Source of the DNA: Alphaproteobacteria bacterium
GTDB taxonomy: Bacteria > Pseudomonadota > Alphaproteobacteria > Rickettsiales > UBA1997
Reading direction: 5' to 3'
Assembly (NCBI GenBank): GCA_021151765.1
Contig: JAGKWR010000002.1
Span: forward strand, 49,918 to 113,917
Length of the DNA: 64,000 nucleotides
The position numbers were made by a program, and so were the translations under genes. Below, one piece after another: positions 16,149-61,063 of the stretch (positions within the stretch are counted from its first letter, which is position 1; each line of letters begins with the position of its first letter). The notes beneath the pieces are model-generated. The model searched no databases. It was not told the origin of the DNA and was given only the letters and a program-made list of their open reading frames with translations.

Positions 16149-16158
16149 AAAATAAATT

Positions 16159-18051: not shown

Positions 18052-18053
18052 AA

Positions 18054-19397: not shown

Positions 19398-19440
19398 ATA
19401 AGCCCTTTTCTTTATTAATTAACCAAACCTCCAGACAACA

Positions 19441-19479: not shown

Positions 19480-19498
19480 ATTCAAAATCTAATACTAA

Positions 19499-20398: not shown

Positions 20399-20408
20399 AA
20401 TAAAATTT

Positions 20409-24788: not shown

Positions 24789-25534
24789 TAAAAAAAATAA
24801 TCCTAACAACTTGTTTACTTACTGTTGCTTTAAGCAGTTTTTCTTGTTCGAAAAAGAAGGAAGAAAAATCCAATGCTGAAATTGCCTATACCAAAGCAAT
24901 GAAAAAGCTAAAAGATCGTGAATTTGTAAGCGCGGCTGAAGCTTTTAGCAAAATTGACGATGATTATCCTTTCTCAAAATGGGCAGTTAAAGCCCAAACT
25001 ATGGCTGTTTATGCCTACTATAAAGAAGAAGATTACAATAAGTTAATCTCGACAGTTGATGATTTTATTCGTCTCAACCCAGCAAACAGCGATGTGTCTT
25101 ACATGCTGTACATGAAAGGTCGTGCCTTTTTTAACCAAATTCCAGAAATTGATCGCGCCCAAGACAATACTCATGAGGCTTCTGCAACATTTCGCGAGTT
25201 GATCGCACGCTTTCCTGATTCACAATATTCAGAAGATGCACGCAAAAAATTATCCTACATTGATGAACATCTGGCCGGAGCTAAAATGTCGATTGGACGC
25301 TACGAAATTCGTAACAAAAATTATGTGGGCGCGATCGGTAATTTTACTGAAGTTACTGAGCGTTACCGCCTTACTAGCCAAGTACCTGAGGCTTATTTTC
25401 GTCTCACAGAAATTTATTATAAAATTGGTATCAAAAAAGAAGCACTCGCTGCTTTCAATAATCTCAAAAGCACTTTTCCAAACAGTGAATGGAAAAATTT
25501 AGCGACTAAAATCGACCCTGAATTATTTCAATGA
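24785..25534 (+). CDS. bamD: Outer membrane protein assembly lipoprotein BamD (YfiO, TPR-like)
   Basis: It has a lipoprotein signal (LSSFSC) and TPR-like repeats with the 'YKEEDYNKLIST...RLNPANSD...YMKGRAFF' pattern of BamD. Confidence 0.8.
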   Translation: MIKKIILTTCLLTVALSSFSCSKKKEEKSNAEIAYTKAMKKLKDREFVSAAEAFSKIDDDYPFSKWAVKAQTMAVYAYYKEEDYNKLISTVDDFIRLNPANSDVSYMLYMKGRAFFNQIPEIDRAQDNTHEASATFRELIARFPDSQYSEDARKKLSYIDEHLAGAKMSIGRYEIRNKNYVGAIGNFTEVTERYRLTSQVPEAYFRLTEIYYKIGIKKEALAAFNNLKSTFPNSEWKNLATKIDPELFQ

Positions 25535-26775
25535 AAACTCGCGCTATTATTGGCTCCGACAATATTTGGCTGCCCTACACTCAAATGCAAAATCATTTGC
25601 CGCAGCTCGAAGTTTTGCGCACGAAAGATTGTAAAATTTTCCTCAAAGATGGTCGTGTTTTAATTGACGGAATCAGCTCTTGGTGGTCTGTGGCGCACGG
25701 TTACAATCATCCGCATTTAGTTAAAGAAATCACCAAACAAGTCAAAATTTTGCCGCATATTATGATGGCGGGATTTGCCGCCGATCAAACTTACAAGCTG
25801 GCAAATCGCTTGTGTAATTTCGCAAAAATGGATCGTGTTTTCTTTTCCGATTCCGGATCAACAGCAGTTGAAGTTGCCATGAAAATGTGTTGGCAATTTC
25901 ACATAAATAAAGGCGAAAAAACGCGTACGAAATTTATTTCATTTAAAAATTCTTATCACGGCGACACTACTGGCGCAATGTCTTTGGCTGATTTAAACAG
26001 CGGCATGCATCAAAAATTCGCTAATTTATTGCTACAAAATTTTTCGCTCGATTTACCCCAAAATACTCAAGATTTAATCGAATTTGAAAATTTTATCGTC
26101 GCGCATAAATCACAACTTGCCGGAATTTTTGTTGAACCAATGGTGCAATGCGCTGGCGGTATGGTTTTTGGTGATGCACAAATTTTACGTCAGATTTTTT
26201 TGATCGCCAAAAAACATCAAATTCTTTTCGTGGCCGATGAATGCGCTGTCGGGTTTTATCGCCTCGGCAAAAAATTTGGCTGTGATTTTGCAGAAATTTC
26301 ACCAGATATTTTAACTTTAGGGAAAGCACTGACTGGCGGATTTGTTGGCTTGGCAGCAACTTTAACAACAAACGAGATTTTCGAAACTTTCCTCAGCGAC
26401 TCGCTCGACAACGCTTTGATGCACGGACCAACTTTTATGGGCAACCCTCTTGCCTGTTCAGCTGCCAACGCTTCGCTCGATCTTTTTGAAAAATATGACT
26501 ACGCCAAAAAAGTCGCCAAAATCGAGAAATTTTTACTGCGAGAATTAAACAAATGCCGCAGCAAAAAAAATGTCAAAGGTGTACGCGTGATTGGCGCGAT
26601 CGGTGTTGTCGAAATTGTCGGCGACTTCAGCAAAATGTTGGAATTACGCCAAAAATTTATCGCCGCCGGAGTATTCTTGCGCCCTTTCGCCAATTGTGTT
26701 TACGTCATGCCAGCCTTGAACATCAAAAAGAGCGATTTGCAAAAAATCACTGACGCTATCAACGCCATTTTGTAA
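25531..26775 (+). CDS. bioA: Adenosylmethionine-8-amino-7-oxononanoate aminotransferase
   Basis: It is a class III aminotransferase with 'SWWSVAHGYNHP' and 'FVADECAVGFYRLGK'. Confidence 0.85.
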   Translation: MKTRAIIGSDNIWLPYTQMQNHLPQLEVLRTKDCKIFLKDGRVLIDGISSWWSVAHGYNHPHLVKEITKQVKILPHIMMAGFAADQTYKLANRLCNFAKMDRVFFSDSGSTAVEVAMKMCWQFHINKGEKTRTKFISFKNSYHGDTTGAMSLADLNSGMHQKFANLLLQNFSLDLPQNTQDLIEFENFIVAHKSQLAGIFVEPMVQCAGGMVFGDAQILRQIFLIAKKHQILFVADECAVGFYRLGKKFGCDFAEISPDILTLGKALTGGFVGLAATLTTNEIFETFLSDSLDNALMHGPTFMGNPLACSAANASLDLFEKYDYAKKVAKIEKFLLRELNKCRSKKNVKGVRVIGAIGVVEIVGDFSKMLELRQKFIAAGVFLRPFANCVYVMPALNIKKSDLQKITDAINAIL

Positions 26776-36319: not shown

Positions 36320-36889
36320 TTATAGATGAAATTTATTCATAAAACTTTCCACCTTCCCTTCTATCATCTCTTCAATCAAATCAGAAATTTTTAAGTTGGT
36401 TTTTTCAACCGTCTTCATTTCTTCCACGCTAAATCTTCCCAGCACATAATCAGCAGTTTCATATTCTTGATTTTGTGGACGACCAATTCCTAAACGTAAA
36501 CGCCAATAATCTTTACCACAACATTCGTCAATTGAACGCAAGCCGTTGTGTCCAGCGTGTCCACCACCGATTTTAACTTTGACTTTCCCTAAAGGCAGAT
36601 CGAGATCATCGTGAAAAACGATCACATTTTTCAAATCGATTTTGTAAAAATTAATCGCTTCTATCACCGCAGTTCCAGAACGATTCATGTAGGTTTGCGG
36701 CTTAATCGCTAAAACTTTTTGATTAGCAATTGTTCCGCTAAAAACTTCGCTTTTAAACTTTTTGGATTGCGCCGTAAAACCATAATCATCAACGATTTTG
36801 TCGAGCAACAAGAAGCCAAAATTATGGCGCGTTAATTCATATTCAGAGCCAATATTTCCAAGCCCGACCAACAAGAACATAGATTGCAA
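36320..36889 (-). CDS. pth: Peptidyl-tRNA hydrolase
   Basis: The 'LLVGLGNIGSEYELTRHNFGF' N-terminus and 'HNGLRS' motif are present. Confidence 0.9.
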   Translation of the reverse strand: MQSMFLLVGLGNIGSEYELTRHNFGFLLLDKIVDDYGFTAQSKKFKSEVFSGTIANQKVLAIKPQTYMNRSGTAVIEAINFYKIDLKNVIVFHDDLDLPLGKVKVKIGGGHAGHNGLRSIDECCGKDYWRLRLGIGRPQNQEYETADYVLGRFSVEEMKTVEKTNLKISDLIEEMIEGKVESFMNKFHL

Positions 36890-42795: not shown

Positions 42796-43785
42796 TTATA
42801 ATCCAACGATTTCAAAAACTTCTTTTTTAGTTTGAGCGGCAATCGCTCTTGCTTGTTCTCTGCCTTGATCAAGAACTTGACGAACATAAGTTTGGTCTTG
42901 CTTGAAGCGTCTTAAATTTTCTTGAATTGGGCGTAATTTTTCGATCAAACTTTCGGCTAAATCATTTTTAAATTTACCGTTGCCAGCAGTTTCATATTCT
43001 TGCGCTAAATCTTGTGGCGACTTATTGGCCGCCGCCGAGAAAATATTTAACAAGTTGCACATTTCCAAACGCGACTCGTCAAAATTGATTGTTGGCAATG
43101 AATCGGTTTTGGCCTTTTTAATTTTTTTCAAAATCAAATCAGCGTCGTCATTTAAATTGATGCGCGATAAATCTGATTCATCAGACTTGCTCATTTTCTT
43201 AGCGCCATCTTGCAAAGACATGATGCGTTTGACTTCTTTGACAATCATCGGCTCCGGCAATTTAAAGTATTCGCAACCAAAACGACGATTAAAAGCGCCG
43301 GCAATGTCGCGAGTAAGTTCAAGATGCTGTTTTTGATCTTCGCCAACCGGCACAATATCGGCGCGGTAAAGCAAAATGTCGGCAGCCATTAAAACTGGGT
43401 AAGAGTAAAGACCGAGATTTTCATCTTTTGCTGATTTCTCTTTAAACTGCGTCATACGATTGAGCCATCCCATCGGCGTCAAAGTGCCAAAAACCCAGGC
43501 CAATTCTGCATGTTCAGCCACTTCGCTTTGAACAAATAACGTAACTTTTTTGGGATCTAAACCACAAGCCAAGTAAACCGCAGCAGCGTCAATCACGTTT
43601 TGACGCAGTTCGCGCGGATCTTGCGGCAAAGTAATAGCGTGCAAATTCATCACGCCGAACACGCATTTGTGCTGATCTTGCAAATCAATCCAATTTGCAA
43701 TCGAACCTAAGTAATTTCCCAAATGCAGATTTCCTGTCGGCTGAATTCCAGATAAAACAGTTTTCATAATTTGATTTGATTTCAA
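42796..43785 (-). CDS. trpS: Tryptophanyl-tRNA synthetase
   Basis: Class I motifs are '[14 protein letters not shown]' (HIGH-like) and 'KMSKS' ('KKMSKSD'). Confidence 0.92.
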
Positions 43786-43913: not shown

Positions 43914-46172
43914 TCAGAGGTTCTTTCCTTTAGTATTTTTAGCTGAATTTTCTTCTTGGCTTTGCACTTTTTCACGAAAATCTGCTTTATGATTTTTACG
44001 TTCAAAAACTTTTTCGCCGCTTATTGTTTGAATTTTAAGAGGTTGCGGTGAGCGACTTGGAATTTCGATCTTTTTAGTTTCAAACTCAGTTCTTCCTTGG
44101 TCGGCAGATTGCTGATTTTTCGAAACTTCGTTTTCTTTATTCGGTTTTATCAATTCAGAATCTTGAGTTGGCGACTTTTGCTGCACATTTTCTGGTTGCA
44201 GATTTTTTAATTTTTCTTTCGATCTTTTTTCTTGTTCTGCCATCAAATAACCAATGTCTAAAACTTCAGATTTTGGCAAAACTTTTTGCTCTTTTTCTTG
44301 AGAAATTTGTAACTGTTTTTGTTGTTGAATTGGCTTTATTGGTGCAAAATCTGTTTTGCTTTTGCTATCCAATACAACGCTGGAAGATTCTATTTTCTTA
44401 TCGCCAGAATTATCAGGAACTTTTATTTTTGATTGTTCCACCACTGTTTTGTTTGCTATTTCAGCTTTCTCAGAAACAGAGAATTTTGGTTCTATTGGTT
44501 GTTCTTTTTTAAAATCAAATTGCACAGCTTTTTCAACAAGCTGAGGCAAAGTTTTTGATTCCGTGTTTTCTTGAGTTTTAACCTCAGATTTTTGTAATTT
44601 CTTACTATCGTTACCTAACTCAAATACTTGATCTATTCTAACTTCAAGGCTCTGAAATGAAGTTTTTAAATCTTTAATCGGAGATTTTTTTTCGGATTCG
44701 ACATCAAATTTTTTTGAATCTTGACCAACTATAGCATCACGTAAATCCTGAGTTATGTAGTTACCCTTGGCAATTGCTTGCGAAATTGCACTAACTAAAA
44801 CTTCACGACGTGAAAACATCGACAACGCACCAATCATTGATGAATCAGCGTTATCAACTGCAATATCAATAATAGTTTTACTACCTTCACGATGATTGAC
44901 GTTAGCACCACAATTAATCAACAAAACTGCAATCAAAGACTGGCCAGATTTAACGGCATTAAACAGTAATTTATTGATATCTTCTTTGCTTAAATCGATT
45001 TGCAGCATTTTCTCCAGTTCAGCTATTGCAGCTGATTTGGTTTGTTTCTGTTCTTTATCGTTTTTTATTTCTGGTTGCGGTTTTTCTGCAACTTTTGACG
45101 GCTGAGAATTTTCAGCTTTTTCAGTATTTTGAATTTGACTTTGTTGCGCGATTTTAGCTAAAGCCTCGCTTAATTCTTGACGATTACTCGATTCTCTTTC
45201 TTTCGTGGAATATGTTGTAACTTTTTGAGCAGTTTGGCTTTGAGATTGCAAATTTGATGATTTTTGTTCTGCATCACGAGTCTTTTGTTCTTTCTGAGCA
45301 GATTCTTTGGCTAATTTTTCTCTCGCCAAAGTATATTCGTAAATCGCTTCCATTTCACGATAAATTCGCAACTGTTCTTGCTGCATTCTATCAATCTCAG
45401 CTTGCTGACGCTTCAAAGCTGCTGACTCAGCTTTTCGTTCTTTTGAATCATCATTTTTAGCTTTTTTACGAGCTTTTTCTTCTTCCTCTTTTTGGCGTGA
45501 TCTTTCTTGATCATTTTCTTGTTGTTCTGAATTTATTCCCTTAGCGCCATTTGCTTTCAAAACTTCTACAGCTTTTTGTTCACCAATCATTTCAGCAAAA
45601 TCACGCGCCGTAAATCCGTAAGAATTTTTTTCATTAACGTTAGCTCCGCGATCAATTAAAACCTGCATCTTTTCAATTTTACCGGAAAGCATCGCAGCCG
45701 TCAGCGGACTCAAACCACATTCACCAAATTTACTTAAATCTTCTGGTTTAAGTTGGCATTTATCGAAGAATTCCATCGATTTTTCCAACGGTTTGCTTGA
45801 GGCGCAGGAAATGATAAAAATTTCTTTAGCAATAGCTTTTACGCGGTCGCGACGCTGTTTCTCAGCTTCTACTTCTTTTTTAGTTTTGGGATTATTTGAG
45901 TTTAAATCTTGACCTTCAGAATCTTTATCACGGGCTTTCGCACTTTCTTTTTCCAAAGCTTGCAGCTCTTTTAGATAATCGCGTAATTTTTTTGGCAAAG
46001 TTTCAATTAAACTAGCCGCTTTACGATTTTTTAACTTAGCAATATTTTCAGGTTGGAAGTTTTCATCGCGCAACAAATCTTCAATAAAGTTACGCAAATA
46101 TTGCTCATCAACTTCTTCTTCCAAAGGTATGTTAAAATATTCGTCTGAATTTTGATTTGGATTATTTTTCAC
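43914..46172 (-). CDS. Ankyrin-repeat protein (752 aa) with a coiled-coil/KE-rich middle region; paralog of 49791-50825
   Basis: Ankyrin repeats are visible ('GLSPLTAAMLSGKIEKMQVLIDRGANVNEKNSYGFTA...', 'LLFNAVKSGQSLIAVLLINCGANVNHREGSKTIIDIA'). The N-terminal roughly 200 aa align with the 344-aa paralog. Confidence 0.8.
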   Translation of the reverse strand: MKNNPNQNSDEYFNIPLEEEVDEQYLRNFIEDLLRDENFQPENIAKLKNRKAASLIETLPKKLRDYLKELQALEKESAKARDKDSEGQDLNSNNPKTKKEVEAEKQRRDRVKAIAKEIFIISCASSKPLEKSMEFFDKCQLKPEDLSKFGECGLSPLTAAMLSGKIEKMQVLIDRGANVNEKNSYGFTARDFAEMIGEQKAVEVLKANGAKGINSEQQENDQERSRQKEEEEKARKKAKNDDSKERKAESAALKRQQAEIDRMQQEQLRIYREMEAIYEYTLAREKLAKESAQKEQKTRDAEQKSSNLQSQSQTAQKVTTYSTKERESSNRQELSEALAKIAQQSQIQNTEKAENSQPSKVAEKPQPEIKNDKEQKQTKSAAIAELEKMLQIDLSKEDINKLLFNAVKSGQSLIAVLLINCGANVNHREGSKTIIDIAVDNADSSMIGALSMFSRREVLVSAISQAIAKGNYITQDLRDAIVGQDSKKFDVESEKKSPIKDLKTSFQSLEVRIDQVFELGNDSKKLQKSEVKTQENTESKTLPQLVEKAVQFDFKKEQPIEPKFSVSEKAEIANKTVVEQSKIKVPDNSGDKKIESSSVVLDSKSKTDFAPIKPIQQQKQLQISQEKEQKVLPKSEVLDIGYLMAEQEKRSKEKLKNLQPENVQQKSPTQDSELIKPNKENEVSKNQQSADQGRTEFETKKIEIPSRSPQPLKIQTISGEKVFERKNHKADFREKVQSQEENSAKNTKGKNL

Positions 46173-46227: not shown

Positions 46228-46730
46228 ATCTTGTAAGGCAAGTAGATGATCGCTGGTTTTAGTTTGGTAACAAATTTGAAAATCAGAGGAAAGTCCGGAC
46301 TCCTCGTCAGAAACGATACCAGCTAACGGCTGGCCACGCAGCTTGAATAAACTAGAGCGGCTGAGGGAAAGTATCACAGAGAATATACCACCAACCATCA
46401 TTGACTAGCTTGATTTTATGCTCTCTTAATCGGAAGTGTTTAGTCGCTACCTTGATGAATTGGCCAGGGTGAAAACGCGAGGTAAGAGCTCACGCGCTTT
46501 CGTGGTAACACGAATTTGGAAAAACCCTATCGGGAGCAAGACCAAATAGGAATGGCAGTTTAGCAATAAACAATGTTCTGACGCATGCCGTTCGGGTAGG
46601 TTGCTTGAGGTCAACAGCGATGTTGATCCTAGATGAATGATCGTCCCGCTTACGCTTCGCTACAGCGCGGCTTTGCCCGTGTTGTTGAAGTGTTTGCGGA
46701 CAGAATCCGGCTTATTCTTGTCTTACATTT
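46228..46730 (+). ncRNA. rnpB: RNase P RNA (bacterial type A) with expanded peripheral helices
   Basis: The conserved P4 strands 'GAGGAAAGTCCGGACTCC' and 'ACAGAATCCGGCTTA' are present, along with the P10-P12 region 'CCAGGGTGAAAACGCGAGGTAAGAGCTCACGC' and a P1 pairing (cttgtaaggcaag ... cttgtcttacat). Confidence 0.75.
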
Positions 46731-46905
46731 TAAATTCCGGTGAGAGCCGGATTTTATTTATTTCTTCTGATCGCAAAACGATCAGTGGCCGGCTTATTCT
46801 TGTCTTACATTTTAAATTTCGGTGCGAGCCGGATTTTATTTATTTCTTCTGATCGCAACACGATCAGTTGGCCGGCTTATTCTTGTTTTACATTCATTAA
46901 ATTTA
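46707..46905 (+). repeat. Tandem direct repeat, period ~82-83 bp, ~2.4 copies, duplicating the rnpB 3' end and a small CCGG hairpin/T-rich terminator
   Basis: Unit 1 is 46707-46788, unit 2 is 46789-46871, and partial unit 3 is 46872-~46905. The units are about 95% identical. Confidence 0.8.
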
Positions 46906-46990
46906 AAACTGCGTTTTAAATTTAGGTTAATTTCGAGTTGCTACAGGCGAAGTAAATTCGCCTATCCACAACAAAGTTTATTTTTTTAAG

Positions 46991-47776
46991 ATGCTTACTA
47001 CCAACGAAATTCGTACAAAATTCCTCGATTACTTTGCCAAAAATGGCCATGAAATTATTGCGTCTAGTCCTTTGATTCCGCATAACGACCCTACTTTGAT
47101 GTTTACCAACGCGGGGATGAATCAGTTCAAAAATTATTTTACTGGCGTGGAAGTTCCGAAATTCAAACGCGCAGCGACTTCGCAAAAATGTGTCCGTGCT
47201 GGTGGTAAACACAACGATCTGGACAATGTTGGCTACACTGCCCGTCATCACACTTTTTTTGAAATGTTAGGTAATTTTTCTTTTGGCGATTATTTCAAAG
47301 AAGAAGCGATTTTTTATGCGTGGAATTTGTTGACGAAAGAATTCGGTATCAACCCACAAAAGCTTTTAGTTACTGTTTATCACAACGATGATGAAGCGGC
47401 AAATTTTTGGAAAAAAATTGCTGGTTTAAATGATGATAAAATTATTCGTATCGCAACTGACGACAACTTCTGGTCGATGGGCGACACTGGTCCTTGCGGC
47501 CCGTGCTCAGAAATTTTCTTCGATCATGGCGATAAAATTTTCGGCGGCCCTCCAGGCAGCAAGGATGAAAATGGTGATCGTTTTATCGAAATTTGGAATT
47601 TGGTTTTCATGCAATTTGAAAAACACAAAGACGGCAAAATGATTCCATTGCCAAAACCTTGTATTGATACTGGCATGGGCTTGGAACGTGTCACTTCAGT
47701 GATGCAAGGCGTTCATGATAATTACGAAACTGACAGCTTCAAAAAATTGATCGGCGAAATTCAAAAAATTGTGTAA
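46991..47776 (+). CDS. alaS: Alanyl-tRNA synthetase, N-terminal catalytic-core fragment (261 aa), separately encoded
   Basis: The '[47 protein letters not shown]' N-terminus, '[19 protein letters not shown]' (class II motif 2 region, near-identical to E. coli) and '[14 protein letters not shown]' are present. The ORF ends with TAA exactly where the 16240 fragment's homology begins. Confidence 0.85.
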
Positions 47777-47838
47777 GTTTTGGAATGTAATTCAATTTCT
47801 TACACAGTCGCTAACCTAGAAATGGTAGATTCCCAATT

Positions 47839-49788
47839 ATGAAAAAACCAAATATCAAAGCCTTCTCTCTGGTTGAAATCACGATCGTAATTTTAGTGAT
47901 TGGTGTTATTATTGCTGGTGTGTTGGCGAGTAATGTTTTGATTAAGAAGTTTCGTATAGCTACGGCGCAGAATTTGACGCAGTCGTCACCGATTCAAGGT
48001 ATTGCAGATTCGGTGTTGTGGTTGGAAACTAGTTTGGACAAGAGTTTTAAGGCTTCAGAGAGTGAGGATAAGTCGAAGTTGAGTGTGTGGTATGATGTTC
48101 GTGAGTCTATGTCTAAGAATAATGCTGTTCAAAGTGATGCTGCTTATGCTCCGAGTTATTCCAATAGTATTAATTATGTGCAAGCGGTGAAGTTTGATGG
48201 CACGAATGGTTATTTTACGGTGGATGGCTCAGTTTTGAACAATACGAATTACACGATTTTTGTTCTAGAGAGGAGAGAGAGTAACAAGAGCGGTAATTAT
48301 TTTATTGGTGATGCTTCATCTGAGAATCAATCAACTACGAATAAGAATTTAGTTTTAGGTTATAGTGCTGATGGGACGGTGATTCATTCGCAATCTAGTG
48401 ATAATTCTTACAGTTCGAGTATTTCGACTTATGCGTCCTCAACTGGCAAGGCGCGAGTTTTTAGTTTTGTTCATGATAGTTCTGTGGGTAAGAAGACTTA
48501 TATTAACGGACTTCTAGCTGCGACTTCGACTGATACTAATAATTTATCTGGGATGAACACTTTGACGATTGGTAAGTCTTATCAGGGTCAGATTGGCGAG
48601 ATTGTGATGTTTGCTCGTGCTTTGACTGATGAAGAGAGAGAATCGGTTGAAGATTATTTGGGTAAGAAATGGAACAGCACAATTTTACGTTCTATTGGTG
48701 GATCTGCTTCATCTGGCGGTATTGGTGGAAGTTGTGTTGGCGGAACTGTCAGCGATTCGGGATGTTTGATTTCTTGTACAGTAACTGCTGCTAATGGGAT
48801 CACAGCTACCACAGTTCAAGACGGATCTGGATCTTTAACTTGTAACGCTGCAGCAAATTTCACTGGTTCTTTGCCTTACTCCTGTGTCAACGGTGTCTTC
48901 CAATATACAGACAAAACAAGCTGCTCCTGCGCAACTGGTTATAATCTAACGGGCTCGACTTGTACACCAATTAACCCAAGTTGTTCAGGTGGCACCGAAT
49001 CTACCACAACTATTTCAGGAATTACTTACAAACTGCATACTTTTACATCTTCTGGAAATCTTGTTTGTACAGCTGGTGGCCGTAGTCAGGTATTAGTTGT
49101 AGCTGGTGGCGGCGGCGGTACATTTTTTGGTGGTGGTGGTGGCGGCGGCGGTGTCGTATTTAAGTCTAGCCATACTCTTACAGTCAAAACTTATAGTGTT
49201 ACAGTTGGTAGTGGTGGTATTGCTAATACTTCAGCTACAACCACTCCAGTTAATGGTGGCAACTCAGTTTTTGATACTATTACCACTTATGGTGGTGGTG
49301 GCGGTGGAAATAACTCTCTAGCAGCTGGAAAAGCTGGTGGCTCTGGTGGCGGAGCAAACAGGGGAGATGTTCCGAGCAGAGTTGGTGGTGCAGTTATTAC
49401 AAATATCGCAGACGGAGGAATTTCTTACGGAAACGTTGGCGGTGCCACAGCAAATATTACAGGTTGGGGTGGTGCTGGTGGAGGTGGAGGAGCTGGATCA
49501 GCAGGTGGTCAAGGAGGTTCTAACGGCACAGCAGCTGGAGAGGTTGGTGGTAGTGGTGGTAATGGCGTATCAATAAGTATAACAGGAACACCAACTTATT
49601 ATGCCGGTGGCGGTGGTGGTGCTGTTCAGGGAAACTTAACCCCATCACCTGGTGGTTTAGGTGGAGGTGGAGCTGGAGGTCGAAATCCAGTCGCCGGAAC
49701 AGATGGTTATGGTGGTGGTGGTGGTGGCTCAACTAACATACCTAAGAGAGGTGGTTCTGGTGTCGTAATTATTCGTTACGCTAAATAA
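47839..49788 (+). CDS. Prepilin-type N-terminal domain + LamG-like jellyroll + EGF-like Cys module + long Gly-rich C-terminal domain (649 aa)
   Basis: The N-terminus 'KKPNIKAFSLVEITIVILVIGVIIAGV' is pilin-like. The LamG_3 pattern runs 'LWLETS...VWYDV...VKFDGTNGYF...TIGKSYQGQIGEIVMFARALTDEERESVEDYLGKKWN'. An EGF-like 'CSCATGYNLTGSTCTP' follows. After that come 235 aa dominated by GGGGG runs and ending 'GSGVVIIRYAK'. Confidence 0.75.
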   Translation: MKKPNIKAFSLVEITIVILVIGVIIAGVLASNVLIKKFRIATAQNLTQSSPIQGIADSVLWLETSLDKSFKASESEDKSKLSVWYDVRESMSKNNAVQSDAAYAPSYSNSINYVQAVKFDGTNGYFTVDGSVLNNTNYTIFVLERRESNKSGNYFIGDASSENQSTTNKNLVLGYSADGTVIHSQSSDNSYSSSISTYASSTGKARVFSFVHDSSVGKKTYINGLLAATSTDTNNLSGMNTLTIGKSYQGQIGEIVMFARALTDEERESVEDYLGKKWNSTILRSIGGSASSGGIGGSCVGGTVSDSGCLISCTVTAANGITATTVQDGSGSLTCNAAANFTGSLPYSCVNGVFQYTDKTSCSCATGYNLTGSTCTPINPSCSGGTESTTTISGITYKLHTFTSSGNLVCTAGGRSQVLVVAGGGGGTFFGGGGGGGGVVFKSSHTLTVKTYSVTVGSGGIANTSATTTPVNGGNSVFDTITTYGGGGGGNNSLAAGKAGGSGGGANRGDVPSRVGGAVITNIADGGISYGNVGGATANITGWGGAGGGGGAGSAGGQGGSNGTAAGEVGGSGGNGVSISITGTPTYYAGGGGGAVQGNLTPSPGGLGGGGAGGRNPVAGTDGYGGGGGGSTNIPKRGGSGVVIIRYAK

Positions 49789-49790: not shown

Positions 49791-50825
49791 TTAACGTCCC
49801 ATTCCACCACCTTGGGAATTATTGCTGTGGTGAAATGGATTATTTACGTGAGATTGCAGCGATCCGGCATTGTCAATCATCTGCCCCATGACTTCACTAA
49901 CTCCTCGTACGTTCTCTTTCGTAATCACACTAGCGCGATCAGCAACTATTGCTGTGATTGCCCAATTACCAGTTTTAGCAGCAGTTTGTAAAATTGTTTC
50001 TCCGCCTAAATTGGCGTTCACATTCGCTCCATCTAAAACTAAACTATTAACTGAAGTAATATCGCCACTTAAAATGGCATCGTGCAATTGTTCTTCTTTA
50101 GTTTGCGAATTTTGCGGTGATGTTTGGTTATCGTTTATCTTACCAAATAAATTCTGCGAACTGCTTTTAGCGCCATTTTCTCGCAATACTGAAGTTAAAT
50201 CACGATCAATTTTCAAAATCGCAATATCCAAAGCTGACAAGCCTTCATTATTCAAAACATTGAGCTGCACACCTTCTGTAATTAGAAATTCCATCATCCA
50301 TTTTTTAACTCCAATTTTAACAGCAATATGAGCAGAATTATCACCATTTGGCGATCTAAAATTTACGTTTGCTCCGAGCATAATCAACCATTGCAAAAAC
50401 TTTTTACCGCGATTGCCCAACAAAGCTGCGCTTAAAGCGTTGAATTTACCTTTGCGATTAAATTTGTTGAGATCGGCTACATTAAACTCACAAACATCAA
50501 AAAAATTAGTAATCTCTTCAATATCAAGGTTTGAAGCACAAGCTGTAACAAATAATTCTTGAGCAATTTCCCGCAAATTTTTTTCAAAATTCGCGCCTTC
50601 TTTTTGCAATTCTTTTTTAAGCTGCTTCAGCTGATGTTGTAGTTCTTCCAACCAAGCTTTTTGATCTAAGTTACTACCTAAATATTTGGCACCAGCTAAT
50701 TTCTCTGCAAAATTATTAACATAGTCGCGATCAAATTTATCGGCTTTGTTCTGCTTAGATTTTGGCTCATTTTTTTGCGAAGAATCTTTTACAAACCAAG
50801 AAAAAACTCTCACAAAGAAAGCCAT
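49791..50825 (-). CDS. Ankyrin-repeat protein (344 aa), paralog of 43914-46172
   Basis: It shares the N-terminal domain ('...ELFVTACASNLDIEEITNFFDVCEF...') with the 752-aa protein. Ankyrin repeats include 'LGANVNFRSPNGDNSAHIAV', 'GVQLNVLNNEGLSALDIA' and 'DGANVNANLGGETILQTAA'. Confidence 0.75.
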   Translation of the reverse strand: MAFFVRVFSWFVKDSSQKNEPKSKQNKADKFDRDYVNNFAEKLAGAKYLGSNLDQKAWLEELQHQLKQLKKELQKEGANFEKNLREIAQELFVTACASNLDIEEITNFFDVCEFNVADLNKFNRKGKFNALSAALLGNRGKKFLQWLIMLGANVNFRSPNGDNSAHIAVKIGVKKWMMEFLITEGVQLNVLNNEGLSALDIAILKIDRDLTSVLRENGAKSSSQNLFGKINDNQTSPQNSQTKEEQLHDAILSGDITSVNSLVLDGANVNANLGGETILQTAAKTGNWAITAIVADRASVITKENVRGVSEVMGQMIDNAGSLQSHVNNPFHHSNNSQGGGMGR

Positions 50826-50833: not shown

Positions 50834-52405
50834 TTATTTTATTTTTTCTTCAACCAATTTCACAAAACTTTCAATGCCAAAAAGTGCAATGAAAGATCCC
50901 ATTCTTGGGCCTTGATCTTGTCCTAATAAAATTTGGTAAAGCGCTAAAAACCAATCACGCATATTCTTTTCATAACCGTGATTTTTACCAACTTGGAATA
51001 CTAAATTCTGCAACAACGCGCCGTCATTTTTTTGTTCTTCAGTTGCGTTTTGCAAAGTTGTAACAAGTTCGCGAAGTGCTGATTTTTCAGCGTCAGTAGC
51101 TTCACGATATTTTTTATTTTTCTTGATGAAATCGTTGTAATAGTTGATGGCGTTGCCGACCAATTTCGCTAAATAAGGCGAGTTTTCTTTGGTCAAACCA
51201 GCTTGGTATTTGGAAATAAAACCCCACAGAACCGAGTCATTTTCTGGGTTACAAGCCGATGCCAAATTCAACAACAGCGAATAGCTCAAGTTAAAATTAA
51301 TCGCCGGAACTTTTCCTTCATGAATGTGGAAAGCAGGATTATCAAACTTTGCCGCCTCTTCCTGAGTTGGATAAGATGCCGCAAAAGTTAAATATTCGTC
51401 AGCCGCTTTTGGAATTACATCGAAATATAAACGTTTGGCAGTTTTTGGTTTTTGATACATAAAAAGTGCCATCGATTCAGCTGGCGCGTAGGAAAGCCAC
51501 TCTTCAACTGAAATGCCGTTACCTTTCGATTTCGAAATTTTTTCGCCAGAATCTGACAAGAACATTTCGTAAGTGAAATTTACTGGTGGAATGCCGCCCA
51601 AGATGCGGCAAACTTCGCGGTAAATTCTTTCATTTGGTTGGTGATCTTTGCCGTAAATTTCGTAATCAACACCCAAAGAATACCAGCGCGCGCCGAAATC
51701 AATTTTCCACTGCAATTTGCAATTTCCGCCGGTAACTGGAATTTCTTTTTCAACTCCGTTTGTATCAACGTAAATAACCGTTCCTTTGGCTTTATTTACA
51801 CCTTTCACGCCTTTGTCGATAACAATTCCAGATTCTGGATCAATCGGCATAAATGGCGAATAAGTAGCTTGGCGTTCTTCACCCAAAGTTGGCAACATCA
51901 AGTTCATCAAATCTTCGTATTTTTCCAAAACGCGCAGCATTGTTGAGTCAAAGGCACCAGATTTATATTTGTCTGTCGCTGAAATAAATTCATATTGAAA
52001 ACCAAAACCATCCAAAAAGCCACGCAAACGCGCATTCATGTGATGTCCGTAAGATTCATGAGTGCCGAAAGGATCAGAAACTGAAGTCAGCGGTTTGCCT
52101 AAATTAGCACGTACCATTTCTTGTTGCGGCACGTTGTCTGGAACTTTGCGAAGCCCGTCAATGTCGTCAGAAACGCAAAACATTTTAGTCGGAATTTCCG
52201 GCGCAATTAAAGTGAAAGCGTGACGCACAAAAGAAGTACGTACAACTTCACCGAAAGTTCCGATATGCGGCAAACCTGACGGCCCGTAACCAGTTTCAAA
52301 AAGAACGTAACCTTTAGCCGGAGTTTTACCGCCAATTTTATCGTAAATTCTTTTAGCTTCTTCAAAGACCCAATTTTTGGGCAAATTATTTATATCGAGT
52401 TTCAT
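50834..52405 (-). CDS. lysK: Lysyl-tRNA synthetase, class I type
   Basis: It has the Rossmann-fold class I motifs 'PSGLPHIGT' (HIGH) and 'KISKSKG' (KMSKS). Its 523-aa length and overall pattern fit LysRS-I of alpha-proteobacteria, spirochetes and archaea. Confidence 0.9.
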   Translation of the reverse strand: MKLDINNLPKNWVFEEAKRIYDKIGGKTPAKGYVLFETGYGPSGLPHIGTFGEVVRTSFVRHAFTLIAPEIPTKMFCVSDDIDGLRKVPDNVPQQEMVRANLGKPLTSVSDPFGTHESYGHHMNARLRGFLDGFGFQYEFISATDKYKSGAFDSTMLRVLEKYEDLMNLMLPTLGEERQATYSPFMPIDPESGIVIDKGVKGVNKAKGTVIYVDTNGVEKEIPVTGGNCKLQWKIDFGARWYSLGVDYEIYGKDHQPNERIYREVCRILGGIPPVNFTYEMFLSDSGEKISKSKGNGISVEEWLSYAPAESMALFMYQKPKTAKRLYFDVIPKAADEYLTFAASYPTQEEAAKFDNPAFHIHEGKVPAINFNLSYSLLLNLASACNPENDSVLWGFISKYQAGLTKENSPYLAKLVGNAINYYNDFIKKNKKYREATDAEKSALRELVTTLQNATEEQKNDGALLQNLVFQVGKNHGYEKNMRDWFLALYQILLGQDQGPRMGSFIALFGIESFVKLVEEKIK

Positions 52406-55180: not shown

Positions 55181-58100
55181 ATGAATTTCAAAATCCCTAA
55201 ATTGCACAAGAACAAAATTCTTCAAGCGAGTATATCGTTGCTTGTGTTTGCTGGGATATTTCTGATATTTAATACTATTTCTCCTCCTAAAGATCTGCAA
55301 AGTGCGGTTTCTTCCTGCGTTTCTTATACTGGCGCTAATTCCGGAGTTAATTGCGCCTACCCTCCTTGTGCTTTATTAACTTCAGGTGCTAATCCTGGGG
55401 TAAATTGTTTACCTAATTGTGCAAATTTAACTGCTGCAACTTCCATAACTGGTAACTCAACTCCAGTTGGCGGTGTAAATTGTTATTATCTTGATAAACC
55501 TCTGTGTACTGCAACATCAAGATCCGTTTCGGTTATGGATATAAACATTCCTAATATCATGACCCCCCCTACAGCACCGGATCCTAGAACTAATTGTGCA
55601 GACTTAATTGATCTACCTCTTTGTGAACAAGTTACTCTTTCAACCGCGAATCCAACAGCCAATTGTGTAAAAGAATGTGGTGCAAACGATAATGTTGATA
55701 CAGCAACGTCCGGACATAATGTAACGTGTGTAAGATTTTGTGATAACATGCCAAATATAAATGGCACTAGTACCAAAATGACAGCTGTTCCTAGAACTTC
55801 TTCTTCCGTTGGTAATTGCGTTCCACGCCAATGTCATCAATTAGCAATCGGTACAAAACCAAACGGATCTAATTGCTCTTTGAATAGTTGTAATAAATTG
55901 TCTCCGGATGAAATGAATCAGAGCAGAATACAAAATGAAGATGATACTAATTTTGCCCAATATTGCGATGGCAGCACCGTTAAATGTTATGAGTTTTCAG
56001 CAAAACAACTTCCCTTTACTAGATATCGACTAAACAACACAATGTGTCAGATTCATAAATGTAAACCAGCAACCACTTCTTGCGGCAGAATTGACAGTTG
56101 TACTGGATTTACTTTGTACAGTGCAACTACTGATGATACTTTGAATATCTCATGTAACACCACTTCTGCTTTAGATAACGGATCAACTCAGCAATATAGC
56201 AGTCTCTATTCAAAATATATTAATGTTGGTCTTCCAATCTCTGACACTTCTTTTTGTCAAGCAGTTGTATGTAAACCAACTTACTATCTTCCTTACCCTT
56301 GTTCGGCTGATGCTAGTGGAAATCTAACAGTTAGAGATACAAATTGTGATGCTTCAGGTGATGGTTCAATATGCGGTACTGTCCAATGTAGTAAGAATGA
56401 TGAATGTAAAAAAGATCTAGGATTTTGTTACAAAACAATAGACTGCAATTTATCTAGCAACTCTACCAACTCTGTTTGTATTGCAGCAAATGGTTCTGAC
56501 GTTAGTAATGATGGCAATTTTGAAGATGATACAGATTCATCATTTCATAGACCAGTTCCACTTAATAAAGCTTATAAAAATAACGATCCATCACAGGGAT
56601 ATAGAATTTCTGGAACCTGCTACACAATAAATCAAATGAAATCACAATCTGATGATAGTAGCGATGATCATAAATGGGGAGTAGATCCAGTAATTCCAAT
56701 GTCTTGGCTCTTTGGTGCAAAAGATATAAGATTAGGCTATACTCATTCACAACTATCACCTGATCGTACAAGATCTCCTAAAGCTTGTGAACCGTCAAAG
56801 GTTGGTTCAAGAGGAACTGGTTATTCTTATCTGTGTGGCAATAAATCAAGTCTGTATAAACCAATAAGCGAGAAAAGCGCTTTTTACAAAGGATACGTAT
56901 CTACAGAATTTTTGGATAATGGTAATACTATTGCCAAACTAAATGTTTGTTTACGATTCAAAAATACTTTAAGACCTGATGATAATACAATTGATGACTC
57001 AGAAACATGTGGCTCGAGAGAATGCGCCATAAGCTATTTTTCAAGTAATCCAATTTCTCAAGCTTGCGGTTTTGATTATTGTCGCACTCTAACAGTAAAT
57101 TCAGTCAATCCGAAAGAATGTGCAATGAGTGGAGACTTATTTGATGTTACTCAAGCTAGCAACTCTAATAATGATAACAAAGCTTGTAGCGAAATAGTAG
57201 ACAGTAACCTCAGACTACGAGCTGTACAATATGGTAACAGAATATGCGCCTTTGTTGATTCATCGACTCAGTTTGCTTATAATAAAATGTTTTTTGATGA
57301 AAATGTTAAACTTGATGATGGAGTCACTTGCGTTAGCGGAACTTATAACCAAAAAACCAAAAAATGTGAAAATGGCAAAGATACTAATGATAAACCGGAA
57401 GAAGCAACACACTGGCGTACTATATTAAAAGTGAAATATACCGGTTCAAACACTGATCTGAATGGTTTTTATGATCGTAACGGCAAATTTATCAAAGCCC
57501 AAGAATGTGTTCAAGTGCCTCTCAGCGATTCACCACCAAACTTATACAATTTAGCTTCTTTACAAAATTCATCAAGAATGTTCACACCACCTTTATTCAT
57601 AAGAGCAATAAATTCAAAACGTGAAGGAGTACAAGTTTCATCAGATGCTTCCGGCACAACAGATTTCTTAGAACCTGAAGTAGTAGTTCAGTTCGGCACT
57701 TCCAATAAAACTCTTAGTATTGGCACTGGTTTAAGTGGCTATGAATCAACTCTTGATTCAAAAAGTTATGCTATGGACTCTACGGCTATAAAAACTGTAA
57801 TGAATGGAATCACTTACTCAGCTAATATTCTAATTAAAAAAGAATTTAATTCTGCAATCAATCAACCAACAGTTTGTTTATATCAAAGATTTAATTCAGA
57901 TAACGGATATTATGATATTAAAATTGGTTGTGCTAATAGATCGCTTCCAGAAATAGATAACGCCAACACTACTTCTCAAAGCTCTATTGGTGTTCGTAAA
58001 ATTAGTATAACTGCGGATACTAATGGAGTTAATACTCTAGATAAAACTACTCAAAAATACGGAGATGCTACCCTGATATTTAAATATTGTGGCGATGCGA

Positions 58101-61063
58101 GCTGTTCAAATTCGAAATCTATTAATTTCAAAAATATTGATCCATCACAACCAACTTGTTTAGGAACCCAAGAAAGTGATATGGAAAAATACAAAGTTTG
58201 TGTGCAACGCGATGAGTGTTCTCAATTGTGGAAAGAATGCATGGAGAACGAAATATCAATCCAAAATAATGGTGAAACCGAGTCAACTGCTGCAGAAAGA
58301 TTAAGATGTCAAAAGCTGGCTGTTAATTGTAACAACAAAAAAGGAATTACTTCACAAAGCAGTAACTTCGTTGATCAAGTTAACTCAACAATAGCAGATA
58401 CTGATGCTTATGGTTGGTTTAATGAGATGTGTATAGTTTCTGGCTTTTCTGATAAATTGTCACAAAAGCTGATTTACCGTAAAATAACTTCAGCAAGCAA
58501 TGTAAAAGGTAAATGCCTTGCTGTTCCGAAAAGCTCACTATCTTCAGTAAATAGCGCAAATTTACAAACTCTTGCCAATTCTTGCCCAAGAGGTGGTGAT
58601 GGAGTTAATTGTATATGTATTGATGCGACTACTGCAATAAGTGGCTATACAATAGATAATCCAACTCCTCATGAAGCTGGTCTTTGTATTTCAATTCCAA
58701 CGCCAAAAGTTTGTAGTTCTGTAAATTATGGCGGAGATAGTTATAACTCATCTTCTCTCGGAGGTTCAGCATATACTAGCTCCGGAGGAACCGTTAACAC
58801 ACAGCATGCGAATAGATCAACTTCTAACGTTGGAGCATCAGTTGGCGGAGGCTTTGGTGAATTCCCAACTTCAGTTGTTGGTATGAATAATATAAAAGGA
58901 ACTTGTAACGGCTTCTGGCAATCACAATCAACTAGTAGTGGTGTTATAAGTCCGAAAATGAATTGCTTAGACAATACTGCAAGTAGCACAAATGGTAAGT
59001 GGAGCGGTCTAATTACTAATTCAGAATCAGCAGCCTGCGTTCGTTTTTCTTCGCCTGCGATAACTACCGGAAATAATACAAATGATTCTGATGCCTCTGG
59101 CAATTATCCAAGTCAAACTTACACAAAATCAACCGAAACAAACGATGTAGCAAGCAATACCTTCGGAGCCGTTACACTTGGAACTAAAGGAGAATCAAAT
59201 GGCTACGCAATTTGGCCATCATTCACTAAAACTAACGATTTTCTACAAACTTACACCGCTACTTCTTGTATAGCAGGATATCGCACAAATTCACTCCCGA
59301 CAAGAGGAGTTGATCAACTTGGCAATCCAAAAAGCGTTAATAGTAGTTGCACCAGAATTACCTGTCCTGCAATTAATCCTTCAACTAATCCTATCGACTG
59401 GACGGCTTGGGCTGCATCAAAAGGCGCTTCATTTGGAGTTGAAGTTGATGCAATGGGTCGCCCACTTACTACAACCTACACAACTCCAGCCTCACGCAGC
59501 ATTTCTTCAGTTACACCAGGATCAACCAGAAAAGGTTATTGTAACACATCTCTTGGTTTCTTCCAAGCAGTTGGCAATTCACAACCAGAAAGAGATTGTT
59601 TATATGATGGAACTTGGGGACCAGTCAGAAATCCATGCGTGAGTTCTTGTAATGCAGTAACAAATCCTGGATCAAGCGATGGTTTTGCAACATGGCCAGC
59701 TTCAAATAATCTCACTGCTGGTCAAAGTGCTGTCGTATCTGGAACCTGCCAATCAGGTTATTCTCCTTACCCTTATCCAAGATTTAAAGATGATACTGGT
59801 ACAGCAATTACCCCAATCCCAAGCGCAACATCTGGCTCACCTGAAACAAGTCCGAAAAGAACTTGTCAATATTCTCAAGTTGTTGGTGGTGGAAGCGCTA
59901 ATACCTGGACCAATGTTTCTTCAACATGTGTAAATCAATGTCCTGGATATGATATAGATACTAGAGAAGGAGTTGGTAAAACTTCTCATAATACTGCACA
60001 ATTTGGATCAATTGAAATCAGATGGCCTTCAACCTCTACTGGAGCGACAATAACAAGAACTTTTGGTTATAACTCAGCTGGAACCGAAGTCGGATTCAAT
60101 AACCTAACTTCGCAAACTGCTTCTGATTATTCACAAGCTGGAAGAACTAACGGTTATTTCATTGTTTCCAGAACCTGCAATTCAAACTATACTTGGAGTG
60201 CTCCAGTTGTTCAATGCGCTACTAATGGCGGAACTGTTAATAACTCAATTATAGGTTCTAGCGGCAATAACACTACAGTGAATGCCGGCTCATCTGTTCA
60301 AGTAAATTCTTGCACAAGTAACTTCGGCACTCCTTCTATGCCTTCTTACCAATGCAAATCCTACAATGGTAGTACAGACTCTTATGGCTATCAAAACATC
60401 GATCAATATTACTACAGCCTAGTTTCAGGATCAGCTTGTGCAGCAATCACATGCAACTTAACAAATAACACATCTTATGGAGCAAGTGGTGGTTCCGTTT
60501 ATACAGGAACTACAAGAAATATTAACGTTGGAGAAGTAGTATCACTATCTTGTAAAAGTGGTTTTGGTAAAAATATTCCATCCCCTGCAATCACGAATGG
60601 TAACGATAGTAGTTGCGGCAGAACAGCTAACGATAGAACTTCTCAAAGTCCTACAGCAACTTGTACAAATAATAACGGCGTGGGAACAATCGTTGTAAAC
60701 AATGACTGCTCCGCATGTAGAAGTTGCAGTGCTAGCCAATATTCTTATATCAACTCATCTAATGTTAACTACACAGGACTTAACTGTTATGTTGGCTGCA
60801 GTGGCAATACTGACCAATGCTTTGTAATTAATCACTACAACAGATACGCAACAGTTCCAGCATCTGGATCAGTAAACGCATATGACTATTCTTGCGGTAA
60901 CGCTGGAGACAATGTTACAACTGTAACTTTTGATAACTGTGCTGCAAACACAACTTGCTCTAAAATCACGAATGGCGGCAAATGTGGTAGCAACACGGTG
61001 AGATACACGTGCGTCGACGGAGACTATCAGCTCGATTACTCAACTTGTGGATGGAGTTACTAA
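55181..61063 (+). CDS. Giant (1960 aa) secreted/surface Cys-, Ser-, Thr-, Asn-rich protein with N-terminal 'NCxxxC' mini-repeats and C-terminal sushi/CCP-like modules
   Basis: The N-terminal signal/anchor is 'ILQASISLLVFAGIFLIF'. There are more than 100 Cys residues. Repeated 'G(V)NC....C' units occur in roughly the first 240 aa. Residues about 1330-1800 carry CCP-like patterns 'CPAINPSTNP...GYCNTSLGFF....CLYDGTWGPVRNPC', 'CQSGYSPYPYP...RTCQYS..W....STC' and 'LSCKSGFGKNIPSPAITNG..C'. Confidence 0.7.
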   Translation: MNFKIPKLHKNKILQASISLLVFAGIFLIFNTISPPKDLQSAVSSCVSYTGANSGVNCAYPPCALLTSGANPGVNCLPNCANLTAATSITGNSTPVGGVNCYYLDKPLCTATSRSVSVMDINIPNIMTPPTAPDPRTNCADLIDLPLCEQVTLSTANPTANCVKECGANDNVDTATSGHNVTCVRFCDNMPNINGTSTKMTAVPRTSSSVGNCVPRQCHQLAIGTKPNGSNCSLNSCNKLSPDEMNQSRIQNEDDTNFAQYCDGSTVKCYEFSAKQLPFTRYRLNNTMCQIHKCKPATTSCGRIDSCTGFTLYSATTDDTLNISCNTTSALDNGSTQQYSSLYSKYINVGLPISDTSFCQAVVCKPTYYLPYPCSADASGNLTVRDTNCDASGDGSICGTVQCSKNDECKKDLGFCYKTIDCNLSSNSTNSVCIAANGSDVSNDGNFEDDTDSSFHRPVPLNKAYKNNDPSQGYRISGTCYTINQMKSQSDDSSDDHKWGVDPVIPMSWLFGAKDIRLGYTHSQLSPDRTRSPKACEPSKVGSRGTGYSYLCGNKSSLYKPISEKSAFYKGYVSTEFLDNGNTIAKLNVCLRFKNTLRPDDNTIDDSETCGSRECAISYFSSNPISQACGFDYCRTLTVNSVNPKECAMSGDLFDVTQASNSNNDNKACSEIVDSNLRLRAVQYGNRICAFVDSSTQFAYNKMFFDENVKLDDGVTCVSGTYNQKTKKCENGKDTNDKPEEATHWRTILKVKYTGSNTDLNGFYDRNGKFIKAQECVQVPLSDSPPNLYNLASLQNSSRMFTPPLFIRAINSKREGVQVSSDASGTTDFLEPEVVVQFGTSNKTLSIGTGLSGYESTLDSKSYAMDSTAIKTVMNGITYSANILIKKEFNSAINQPTVCLYQRFNSDNGYYDIKIGCANRSLPEIDNANTTSQSSIGVRKISITADTNGVNTLDKTTQKYGDATLIFKYCGDASCSNSKSINFKNIDPSQPTCLGTQESDMEKYKVCVQRDECSQLWKECMENEISIQNNGETESTAAERLRCQKLAVNCNNKKGITSQSSNFVDQVNSTIADTDAYGWFNEMCIVSGFSDKLSQKLIYRKITSASNVKGKCLAVPKSSLSSVNSANLQTLANSCPRGGDGVNCICIDATTAISGYTIDNPTPHEAGLCISIPTPKVCSSVNYGGDSYNSSSLGGSAYTSSGGTVNTQHANRSTSNVGASVGGGFGEFPTSVVGMNNIKGTCNGFWQSQSTSSGVISPKMNCLDNTASSTNGKWSGLITNSESAACVRFSSPAITTGNNTNDSDASGNYPSQTYTKSTETNDVASNTFGAVTLGTKGESNGYAIWPSFTKTNDFLQTYTATSCIAGYRTNSLPTRGVDQLGNPKSVNSSCTRITCPAINPSTNPIDWTAWAASKGASFGVEVDAMGRPLTTTYTTPASRSISSVTPGSTRKGYCNTSLGFFQAVGNSQPERDCLYDGTWGPVRNPCVSSCNAVTNPGSSDGFATWPASNNLTAGQSAVVSGTCQSGYSPYPYPRFKDDTGTAITPIPSATSGSPETSPKRTCQYSQVVGGGSANTWTNVSSTCVNQCPGYDIDTREGVGKTSHNTAQFGSIEIRWPSTSTGATITRTFGYNSAGTEVGFNNLTSQTASDYSQAGRTNGYFIVSRTCNSNYTWSAPVVQCATNGGTVNNSIIGSSGNNTTVNAGSSVQVNSCTSNFGTPSMPSYQCKSYNGSTDSYGYQNIDQYYYSLVSGSACAAITCNLTNNTSYGASGGSVYTGTTRNINVGEVVSLSCKSGFGKNIPSPAITNGNDSSCGRTANDRTSQSPTATCTNNNGVGTIVVNNDCSACRSCSASQYSYINSSNVNYTGLNCYVGCSGNTDQCFVINHYNRYATVPASGSVNAYDYSCGNAGDNVTTVTFDNCAANTTCSKITNGGKCGSNTVRYTCVDGDYQLDYSTCGWSY

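Follow-up and report, generated by a model that had tools for sequence, protein, structure and literature searches.

Alanyl-tRNA synthetase (AlaRS) has been described as the only aminoacyl-tRNA synthetase that keeps its prototype structure throughout biology, with Nanoarchaeum equitans as the sole exception (PMC10036535, 2023). In N. equitans, separate α and β subunits reconstitute alanylation that is specific for the G3:U70 base pair, and both subunits are needed for strong charging (PMC11392972). Here, we analyze a stretch of 64,000 nucleotides (nt), hereafter termed the window (positions 49,918 to 113,917 of contig JAGKWR010000002.1, assembly GCA_021151765.1, Alphaproteobacteria bacterium), in which the AlaRS gene, alaS, is present as two distant pieces, alaS-N and alaS-C, the putative genes for an α and a β subunit. 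Instead of the single chain with four domains that makes up the prototype structure, the window holds two open reading frames (ORFs) with 28.9 kb between them. We consider it probable, at roughly 85%, that they give rise to a heteromeric AlaRS encoded at two loci after one ancient fission at the root of a large Rickettsiales-like clade. This reading is based on the anatomy of the two pieces, their functional residues and their termini, on monophyly and co-occurrence, and on purifying selection.

The Nanoarchaeum enzyme, to which an earlier note on this DNA had pointed as a precedent, is a real one but with another break site, close to E. coli residue 368 (PMC11392972, PMC10036535). Common to both cases are two distant alaS genes, a catalytic core residing on α, editing and C-Ala domains residing on β, and two separate subunits that jointly cover a full AlaRS. 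In the Nanoarchaeota, however, α corresponds approximately to the E. coli fragment 368N, which places the break inside the tRNA-recognition domain (PMC11392972), and the enzyme is of the archaeal type. The pieces described here share none of these traits. They are of the bacterial (alphaproteobacterial) type and are separated at about E. coli residues 271–277, i.e. some 100 residues earlier and at a domain boundary, with the equivalents of N303 and D400 both on β. Moreover, the nanoarchaeal split belongs to one small phylum of hyperthermophilic symbionts, whereas the present one is found in a large environmental clade. We regard the bacterial fission as independent of the nanoarchaeal one because break site and enzyme type differ.

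Shortened forms of AlaRS, namely the mini-AlaRS of Tupanvirus and the engineered E. coli fragments 368N and 461N, have established that the enzyme is modular and that N-terminal fragments are active (PMC10036535, PMC11392972). Unlike these, alaS-N encodes the catalytic core alone and the missing parts are provided by a second gene. The leucyl-tRNA synthetase (LeuRS) of Aquifex aeolicus naturally consists of two polypeptides that form an αβ heterodimer (PMC2377443, citing Xu et al. 2002). It resembles our case as a bacterial synthetase that is split in nature and differs in belonging to class I and in having another break point. To our knowledge, αβ LeuRS is confined to the Aquificae. A likeness in layout is offered by the glycyl-tRNA synthetase (GlyRS) pair GlyQ/GlyS, where a catalytic α of about 260–300 amino acids (aa) is combined with a β of about 600–700 aa that carries acceptor-stem and other tRNA-binding modules. 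An evolutionary link between GlyRS and AlaRS has been discussed, as has the similar binding of the acceptor stem by AlaRS's Mid1 subdomain and the HD domain of GlyS (PMC9908026). GlyQ/GlyS nonetheless serves another amino acid and another tRNA, and GlyS contains an anticodon-binding domain and no editing domain of the AlaRS type. GlyQ dimerizes as the centre of an X-shaped (αβ)2 particle, whereas AlaRS dimerizes via C-Ala (PMC9908026, PMC10036535). The resemblance is one of layout only and not of membership.

Anatomy of the two genes and their junction

Gene alaS-N (46991–47776, + strand, ATG to TAA) encodes 261 aa and was assigned as α subunit from the ORF itself, PF01411, alignment with E. 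coli AlaRS and an AlphaFold2 (AF2) model. Gene alaS-C (16240–18051, + strand), assigned as β subunit from its ORF, TIGR00344 and alignment, encodes 603 aa, and its product starts with MKAELKIIADH, the equivalent of E. coli residues ~277–286. On the strand, alaS-C comes first and alaS-N lies 28,939 nt downstream, such that the order of the genes is permuted relative to that of the protein. Approximately 25 protein genes and rnpB lie in between. The earlier note had placed both ORFs correctly, with the motifs it quoted, and its distance of about 29 kb on the same strand is accurate; ORF calls and alignment agree on this. It had also listed the RNase J gene among those separating the pieces, which does not hold: rnj is located upstream of alaS-C.

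Profile searches divide AlaRS between the two products at the same place. The Pfam profile tRNA-synt_2c (PF01411) is covered from position 1 to 257 by alaS-N (E 6e-123) and from 269 to 549 by alaS-C, for which tRNA_SAD and DHHA1 are matched as well. The NCBIfam equivalog profile for alaS, TIGR00344, is shared out likewise, with positions 1–247 in alaS-N and 269–847 in alaS-C; given an equivalog cut-off of 457 bits, alaS-N stays below it (399.6 bits) and alaS-C exceeds it (505.6 bits). The archaeal AlaRS model TIGR03683 scores far under its own cut-off on these pieces. In phmmer comparisons with solved structures, alaS-N matches residues 3–269 of E. coli AlaRS (E 1e-116) and alaS-C residues 279–437, with the alignment starting at residue 279, while the C-Ala structure 3g98 matches alaS-C residues 494–601. 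The proposals that the 261-aa ORF comprises the whole aminoacylation core and that the 603-aa ORF continues from there through the editing domain and C-Ala are both borne out by these matches and by alignment.

Gene alaS-N encodes in full the class II aminoacylation core of an AlaRS, including motifs 1–3 and the alanine/ATP pocket; the alignment shows DTGMGLER and the retention of the alanine pocket as well as of motifs 2 and 3. An AF2 model built from a shallow alignment has a mean predicted local distance difference test score (pLDDT) of 71.5 and a predicted template modelling score (pTM) of 0.75, ends in a terminal helix (residues 248–260) and superimposes on the solved AlaRS catalytic fragments 3hxu and 9jc7 with template modelling scores of 0.84–0.86. 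The next-best structural match to this model after AlaRS is GlyQ (chains of 276–299 aa, ~250 aligned columns).

The alaS-C product consists of the tRNA-recognition domain, which is the second half of Pfam tRNA-synt_2c (16243–17040, + strand, residues 2–267; Pfam and alignment), the editing domain (16822–17466, + strand, residues ~195–409; AlaXM-like match over 195–409, tRNA_SAD match over 367–409) and a DHHA1-like C-Ala domain (17746–18042, + strand, residues 503–601; GGKGGGK motif, PF02272 match and alignment). In E. coli AlaRS, G3:U70 is read by N303 and D400 (PMC10036535, PMC11392972). The counterparts of both readers are found in alaS-C, as the Asn of PSNEGRGY and the Asp of LYDTYGFP, respectively. 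All of the editing-site motifs, HSATH, SQKGS and CGGTH, are kept, HSATH and CGGTH representing the HxxxH and CxxxH zinc motifs of the editing domain, and so is GGKGGG(K) of C-Ala. Across the two products, every residue that AlaRS is known to need for its function is retained. Elsewhere in the editing and C-Ala regions alaS-C carries substitutions, examples being FYATSGGQ in place of FYAESGGQ and FTFDF in place of LRFDF. The region corresponding to PF01411 positions 269–549 precedes the AlaX-like one. A free-standing AlaX editing protein was considered as the identity of alaS-C and is ruled out by the tRNA-recognition domain.

When aligned by MAFFT with AlaRS from E. coli and four intact alphaproteobacterial enzymes, alaS-N ends at about E. 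coli residue 271 and alaS-C begins at about 277. Absent at the junction are approximately 5 residues compared to E. coli and 10 compared to the alphaproteobacterial relatives, all of them from a loop of variable length that already differs between intact AlaRS enzymes. The pieces do not overlap on intact AlaRS and no conserved residue is missing. The earlier statement that no residues are lost can thus be upheld for conserved positions, while 5–10 loop residues are indeed gone. Searching the 64-kb window by tblastn with three intact alphaproteobacterial AlaRS sequences returned the two loci and no further remnant. Altogether, phmmer, MAFFT and tblastn agree that the pieces are contiguous and non-overlapping parts of one enzyme.

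Distribution and origin of the split

We collected the best 120 database matches for each piece, clustered at 90% identity. For alaS-N, these matches (76–91% identity, all with at least 482 bits) measure 253–307 aa, with 100 of the 120 falling between 259 and 265 aa, and for alaS-C (55–100% identity) all are 503–714 aa long. In the protein database, no intact AlaRS scores above the piece-sized best 120 matches of either piece. The termini are common property as well: the C-terminus of the N piece follows the pattern NLIxEIxKxx and the N-terminus of the C piece the pattern M(x1-6)[KP][AE]E[LF]KIIADH. Whether relatives share the split, a check that had been proposed earlier, can therefore be answered positively, the best 120 matches of each piece all being piece-sized with common termini.

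Furthermore, we examined those 80 species representatives whose genomes match the N domain best. In two of them, which are the closest (L001, 88%; L002, 85%), the reading frame stops at 261–263 aa and is followed by unrelated genes on the opposite strand. In the other representatives the frame extends to about 880 aa or off the end of the contig, apart from four with isolated stops at arbitrary positions. On metagenome contigs, none of the ten C-piece relatives of at least 56% identity for which the 5′ end is present has an N domain encoded in frame ahead of it. An in-frame N domain occurs in five of six C-piece relatives at 36–43% identity with the upstream region present. P0276, P0283, P0356 and other short proteins among the 50%-identity representatives were considered as further splits and rejected, since they stem from high-GC organisms and resemble products of frameshifts or pieces cut off at contig ends. 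Submitters have labelled the relatives as Rickettsiales, Pelagibacterales or Alphaproteobacteria. Taking these labels together with VirB3, ankyrin-repeat proteins, a class I lysyl-tRNA synthetase (LysRS) and a GC content of 38%, the lineage is best described as Rickettsiales-like and is probably host-associated.

Neighbour-joining of N domains groups 42 of 43 short proteins in a single clade that excludes intact alphaproteobacterial N domains (bootstrap 75/100), and the intact sequence nearest to this clade stems from an uncultured Rickettsiales metagenome-assembled genome (MAG; L024). Kimura distances reach 0.43 inside the split clade, compared to a mean of 0.36 between the clade and its nearest intact relative. 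Because of this clade and the divergence within it, we read the data as pointing to a single, old fission of alaS. Both pieces are under purifying selection. For alaS-N, pairwise ratios of non-synonymous to synonymous substitution (dN/dS) amount to 0.04–0.07 with dS largely saturated, and for alaS-C to 0.12–0.26, where the value of 0.12 belongs to the closest, unsaturated pair (dS 0.18). The GC content of alaS-N and alaS-C, overall and at third codon positions (GC3), is within the spread of the genes in the window, and both pieces are native to the genome.

A proposed two-subunit enzyme and its alternatives

We propose that in an ancestor of these uncultured Rickettsiales-like Alphaproteobacteria alaS was broken at the variable loop that links the aminoacylation and tRNA-recognition domains. 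In the resulting enzyme, the 261-aa α subunit would bind ATP and alanine and form alanyl-adenylate. The 603-aa β subunit would dock onto α where the catalytic domain and Mid1, a subdomain of the tRNA-recognition domain, natively meet, read G3:U70 with its conserved Asn and Asp and present the CCA end to the active site of α. Ser- and Gly-tRNA(Ala) would be proofread by the editing domain of β, the C-Ala domain of which may bind the tRNA elbow and dimerize, such that the expected particle is (αβ)2. We infer the non-covalent assembly and this division of labour from how AlaRS is built and works and from the behaviour of the α and β subunits of Nanoarchaeum. As α lacks the entire tRNA-recognition domain, it is predicted to perform, on its own, nothing but amino acid activation.

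Several points weigh against this proposal. The search for alaS covered the 64-kb window, and the genome could contain a second, intact copy, acquired for example by horizontal transfer. The new termini show no sign of an extra docking element, for example a zipper or an extension, and assembly would therefore have to rest on the native interdomain interface alone. Finally, in alaS-C the split clade has fixed, clade-specific substitutions where 47 intact alphaproteobacterial AlaRS do not vary, for example E501T, R575K, R595T and Q851M (E. coli numbering), and in addition H581S and H600F, where His is kept in 98% and 87% of the intact enzymes, respectively. Other substitutions specific to the clade are S280E, R282K, V283I, H320Q, L323K and A246S.

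It is conceivable that the pieces are real and conserved but do not constitute the housekeeping AlaRS and that tRNA(Ala) is charged by an intact enzyme encoded elsewhere. The C piece could then act as an AlaX-like trans-editing or tRNA(Ala)-binding factor and the N piece as a ligase that forms alanyl-adenylate for another acceptor. The 64-kb span of the search for further alaS genes leaves room for such an arrangement, alaS-C does match the AlaXM model over residues 195–409, and both free-standing AlaX editing homologues and paralogues of class II synthetase catalytic cores exist in nature. Separate jobs would not, however, require the two pieces to meet at the same residue, as they do in every relative, nor are they easily reconciled with an alaS-C that retains both G3:U70 readers along with the tRNA-recognition domain in its entirety, all of which AlaX proteins lack. 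Strong purifying selection acts on catalytic as well as recognition motifs, no intact AlaRS outscores the best 120 piece-sized matches of either piece, and alaS-C alone surpasses the alaS equivalog cut-off and is named alanine--tRNA ligase by its sources. We therefore think it unlikely that the pieces have parted functionally and prefer the two-subunit AlaRS. The possibility that the split is an artefact, caused by misassembly, a sequencing frameshift or recent pseudogenization, is very unlikely and can be taken as effectively refuted. Isolated premature stops do occur at MAG loci of intact lineages (L012, 401 aa; L047, 418 aa; L055, 460 aa; L030, 786 aa), but these are probably frameshift errors of MAG assemblies and not further splits. 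In the clade itself, the same boundaries are found in at least 120 clusters (90% identity) per piece from NCBI, JGI, ENA and Logan assemblies, the pieces are about 26–29 kb apart and abutted by unrelated genes, no AlaRS remnant lies beside either of them, and dN/dS is far below 1. Both junctions recur in independent contigs. Positions 46852–48285, and thus the alaS-N stop and the next gene, are matched at 100% identity by a Logan assembly of SRR13740815, and an NCBI metagenome contig (92–94% identical) is colinear with 8157–26082 over rnj, alaS-C and glmM. For either of the two window proteins, the longest contig on record measures 168,542 bp. In a second organism (ENA ERZ27247967, contig k141_758001, 44,990 bp), the N piece (P0253) and the C piece (P0178, ~64–66% identical to alaS-C from the window) are encoded on the same strand, C before N and about 26 kb apart. 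The check for misassembly that had been recommended is therefore decided against it, by two independent contigs and a second genome with both pieces on one contig.

The two products might also be rejoined into a single chain after synthesis, by a split intein or by trans-splicing of RNA. Split inteins are the usual route from separately encoded halves to one protein chain. They would demand an N-intein of ~100 aa and a C-intein of ~35 aa with its nucleophile, and there are zero extra residues at the junction. Neither terminus exceeds the AlaRS alignment, in agreement with the earlier remark that intein hallmarks are lacking, and there is therefore no room for a split intein. The intergenic gaps are just 62 nt from the alaS-N stop to the next gene and 91 nt from the rnj stop to the alaS-C ATG, ahead of which alaS-C has no other start codon in frame. 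A group I or II intron was not detected by Rfam in the window, where only rnpB (46234–46729) and one tRNA-Gly gave matches. Rejoining by intein or trans-splicing is effectively refuted by sequence, and we attach next to no weight to it.

Returning to the two-subunit enzyme, we judge it quite probable that a whole clade of at least family to order depth depends on an obligate AlaRS of this kind, with an α devoid of any tRNA-recognition element and G3:U70 read in trans, and that this is the first bacterial split, independent of that in the Nanoarchaeota and with a layout like GlyQ/GlyS. In the literature searched, which lay largely outside subscription journals, a split AlaRS from bacteria turned up nowhere, and the only split AlaRS encountered was that of the Nanoarchaeota. 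A preprint on ‘split genes’ in Pelagibacter was considered as a precedent and discarded, since it deals with assembly frameshifts and alaS is not involved. The case described here thus appears to be the first bacterial one; its break point is new, and it occurs throughout a clade. In public records, the alaS-N product, where named, goes as ‘hypothetical protein’ (MBU6339762.1) or under a generic JGI call, and that of alaS-C as alanine--tRNA ligase. As alaS-C alone passes the alaS threshold, standard annotation does not reveal the split, and marker-gene phylogenies or estimates of completeness that rely on alaS could be biased by it. The alaS-N product offers itself as a natural minimal catalytic subunit, with which it becomes testable whether a class II core alone activates alanine and whether it charges minihelices without G3:U70, as Nanoarchaeum α does. 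The communication between recognition, catalysis and editing across a non-covalent interface becomes accessible to testing as well. If true, the two-subunit AlaRS would converge on the GlyQ/GlyS layout of its closest class II relative, and the split layout would support the proposed kinship with (αβ)2 GlyRS.

Genomic neighbourhood

The surroundings of both pieces are well conserved among relatives. For alaS-C, all relatives that we examined, at identities as low as 57%, share the order coaX-rnj-alaS-C-glmM. Because only 2 nt separate the alaS-C stop from the glmM start in the window, co-transcription of the two genes is suggested. The usual context of alaS-N is nadA-trpS(−)...rnpB(+)-alaS-N(+), followed by a variable gene and then by lysS for a class I enzyme. 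The nadA-trpS-(rnpB)-alaS-N arrangement is kept in L001, L002 and L082, and rnpB adjoins alaS-N also in L108 and L110. In one sub-lineage (L083, L084; 9903–9979), a gene for tRNA-Ile(GAU) resides 22 nt upstream of alaS-N instead of rnpB. Both arrangements put alaS-N after a gene for a stable RNA. Within about 10 kb, rnj, glmM, coaX, trpS and nadA were found at none of the 78 related loci that lack this split, and the intact loci L003 and L024 feature a recA-alaS arrangement. In the relatives sampled, neither the alaS-N nor the alaS-C context occurs beside intact alaS. The order of C before N on the same strand would fit genes permuted through duplication followed by reciprocal loss or, alternatively, a translocation. 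No tRNA-Ala gene, with G3:U70 or otherwise, was found in the window or at the 16 related loci scanned.

The regions immediately upstream of alaS-N and alaS-C are not conserved across the clade, and a simple scan for promoters gave nothing beyond shuffled expectation. Directly upstream of alaS-N in the window lies rnpB (RNase P RNA class A, 231 bits; 46234–46729). It is followed by a tandem repeat of 82 nt in 2.4 copies (46707–46904) that copies the 3′ end of rnpB along with a hairpin resembling a terminator. The gap from the rnj stop to the alaS-C start contains a 66-nt imperfect palindrome (16161–16226), which as RNA folds with −24.3 kcal/mol (z −3.96) and has one copy only in the window. At the same place, a similar sequence exists in L086 and L089 and a different palindrome-like sequence in L094. 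The palindrome could serve in processing or attenuation, or else be an insert resembling a miniature inverted-repeat transposable element (MITE).

Two genes for proteins with a prepilin-like leader were noted. The gene directly downstream of alaS-N (47839–49788, + strand) encodes 649 aa with a Gly_rich_2 domain and a prepilin-like hydrophobic leader. The other one (19499–20398, − strand) encodes 299 aa with a prepilin-like leader and a weak match to Laminin_G_3; of the two products, this is the only one in which the Pfam N_methyl motif was detected. An ORF of 1960 aa (55181–61063, + strand) has no Pfam match at E ≤ 0.001. The neighbourhood of alaS-N is rich in genes related to translation, comprising lysS, trpS (42796–43785), pth (36320–36889) and rnpB, and lysS (50834–52405, − strand) specifies a class I LysRS (PF01921) instead of the usual bacterial class II enzyme. 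VirB3 is encoded near the alaS-C locus in relatives. Ankyrin-repeat proteins are encoded on either side of alaS-N (43914–46172 and 49791–50825, both − strand), and the same holds for relatives (L108–L110).

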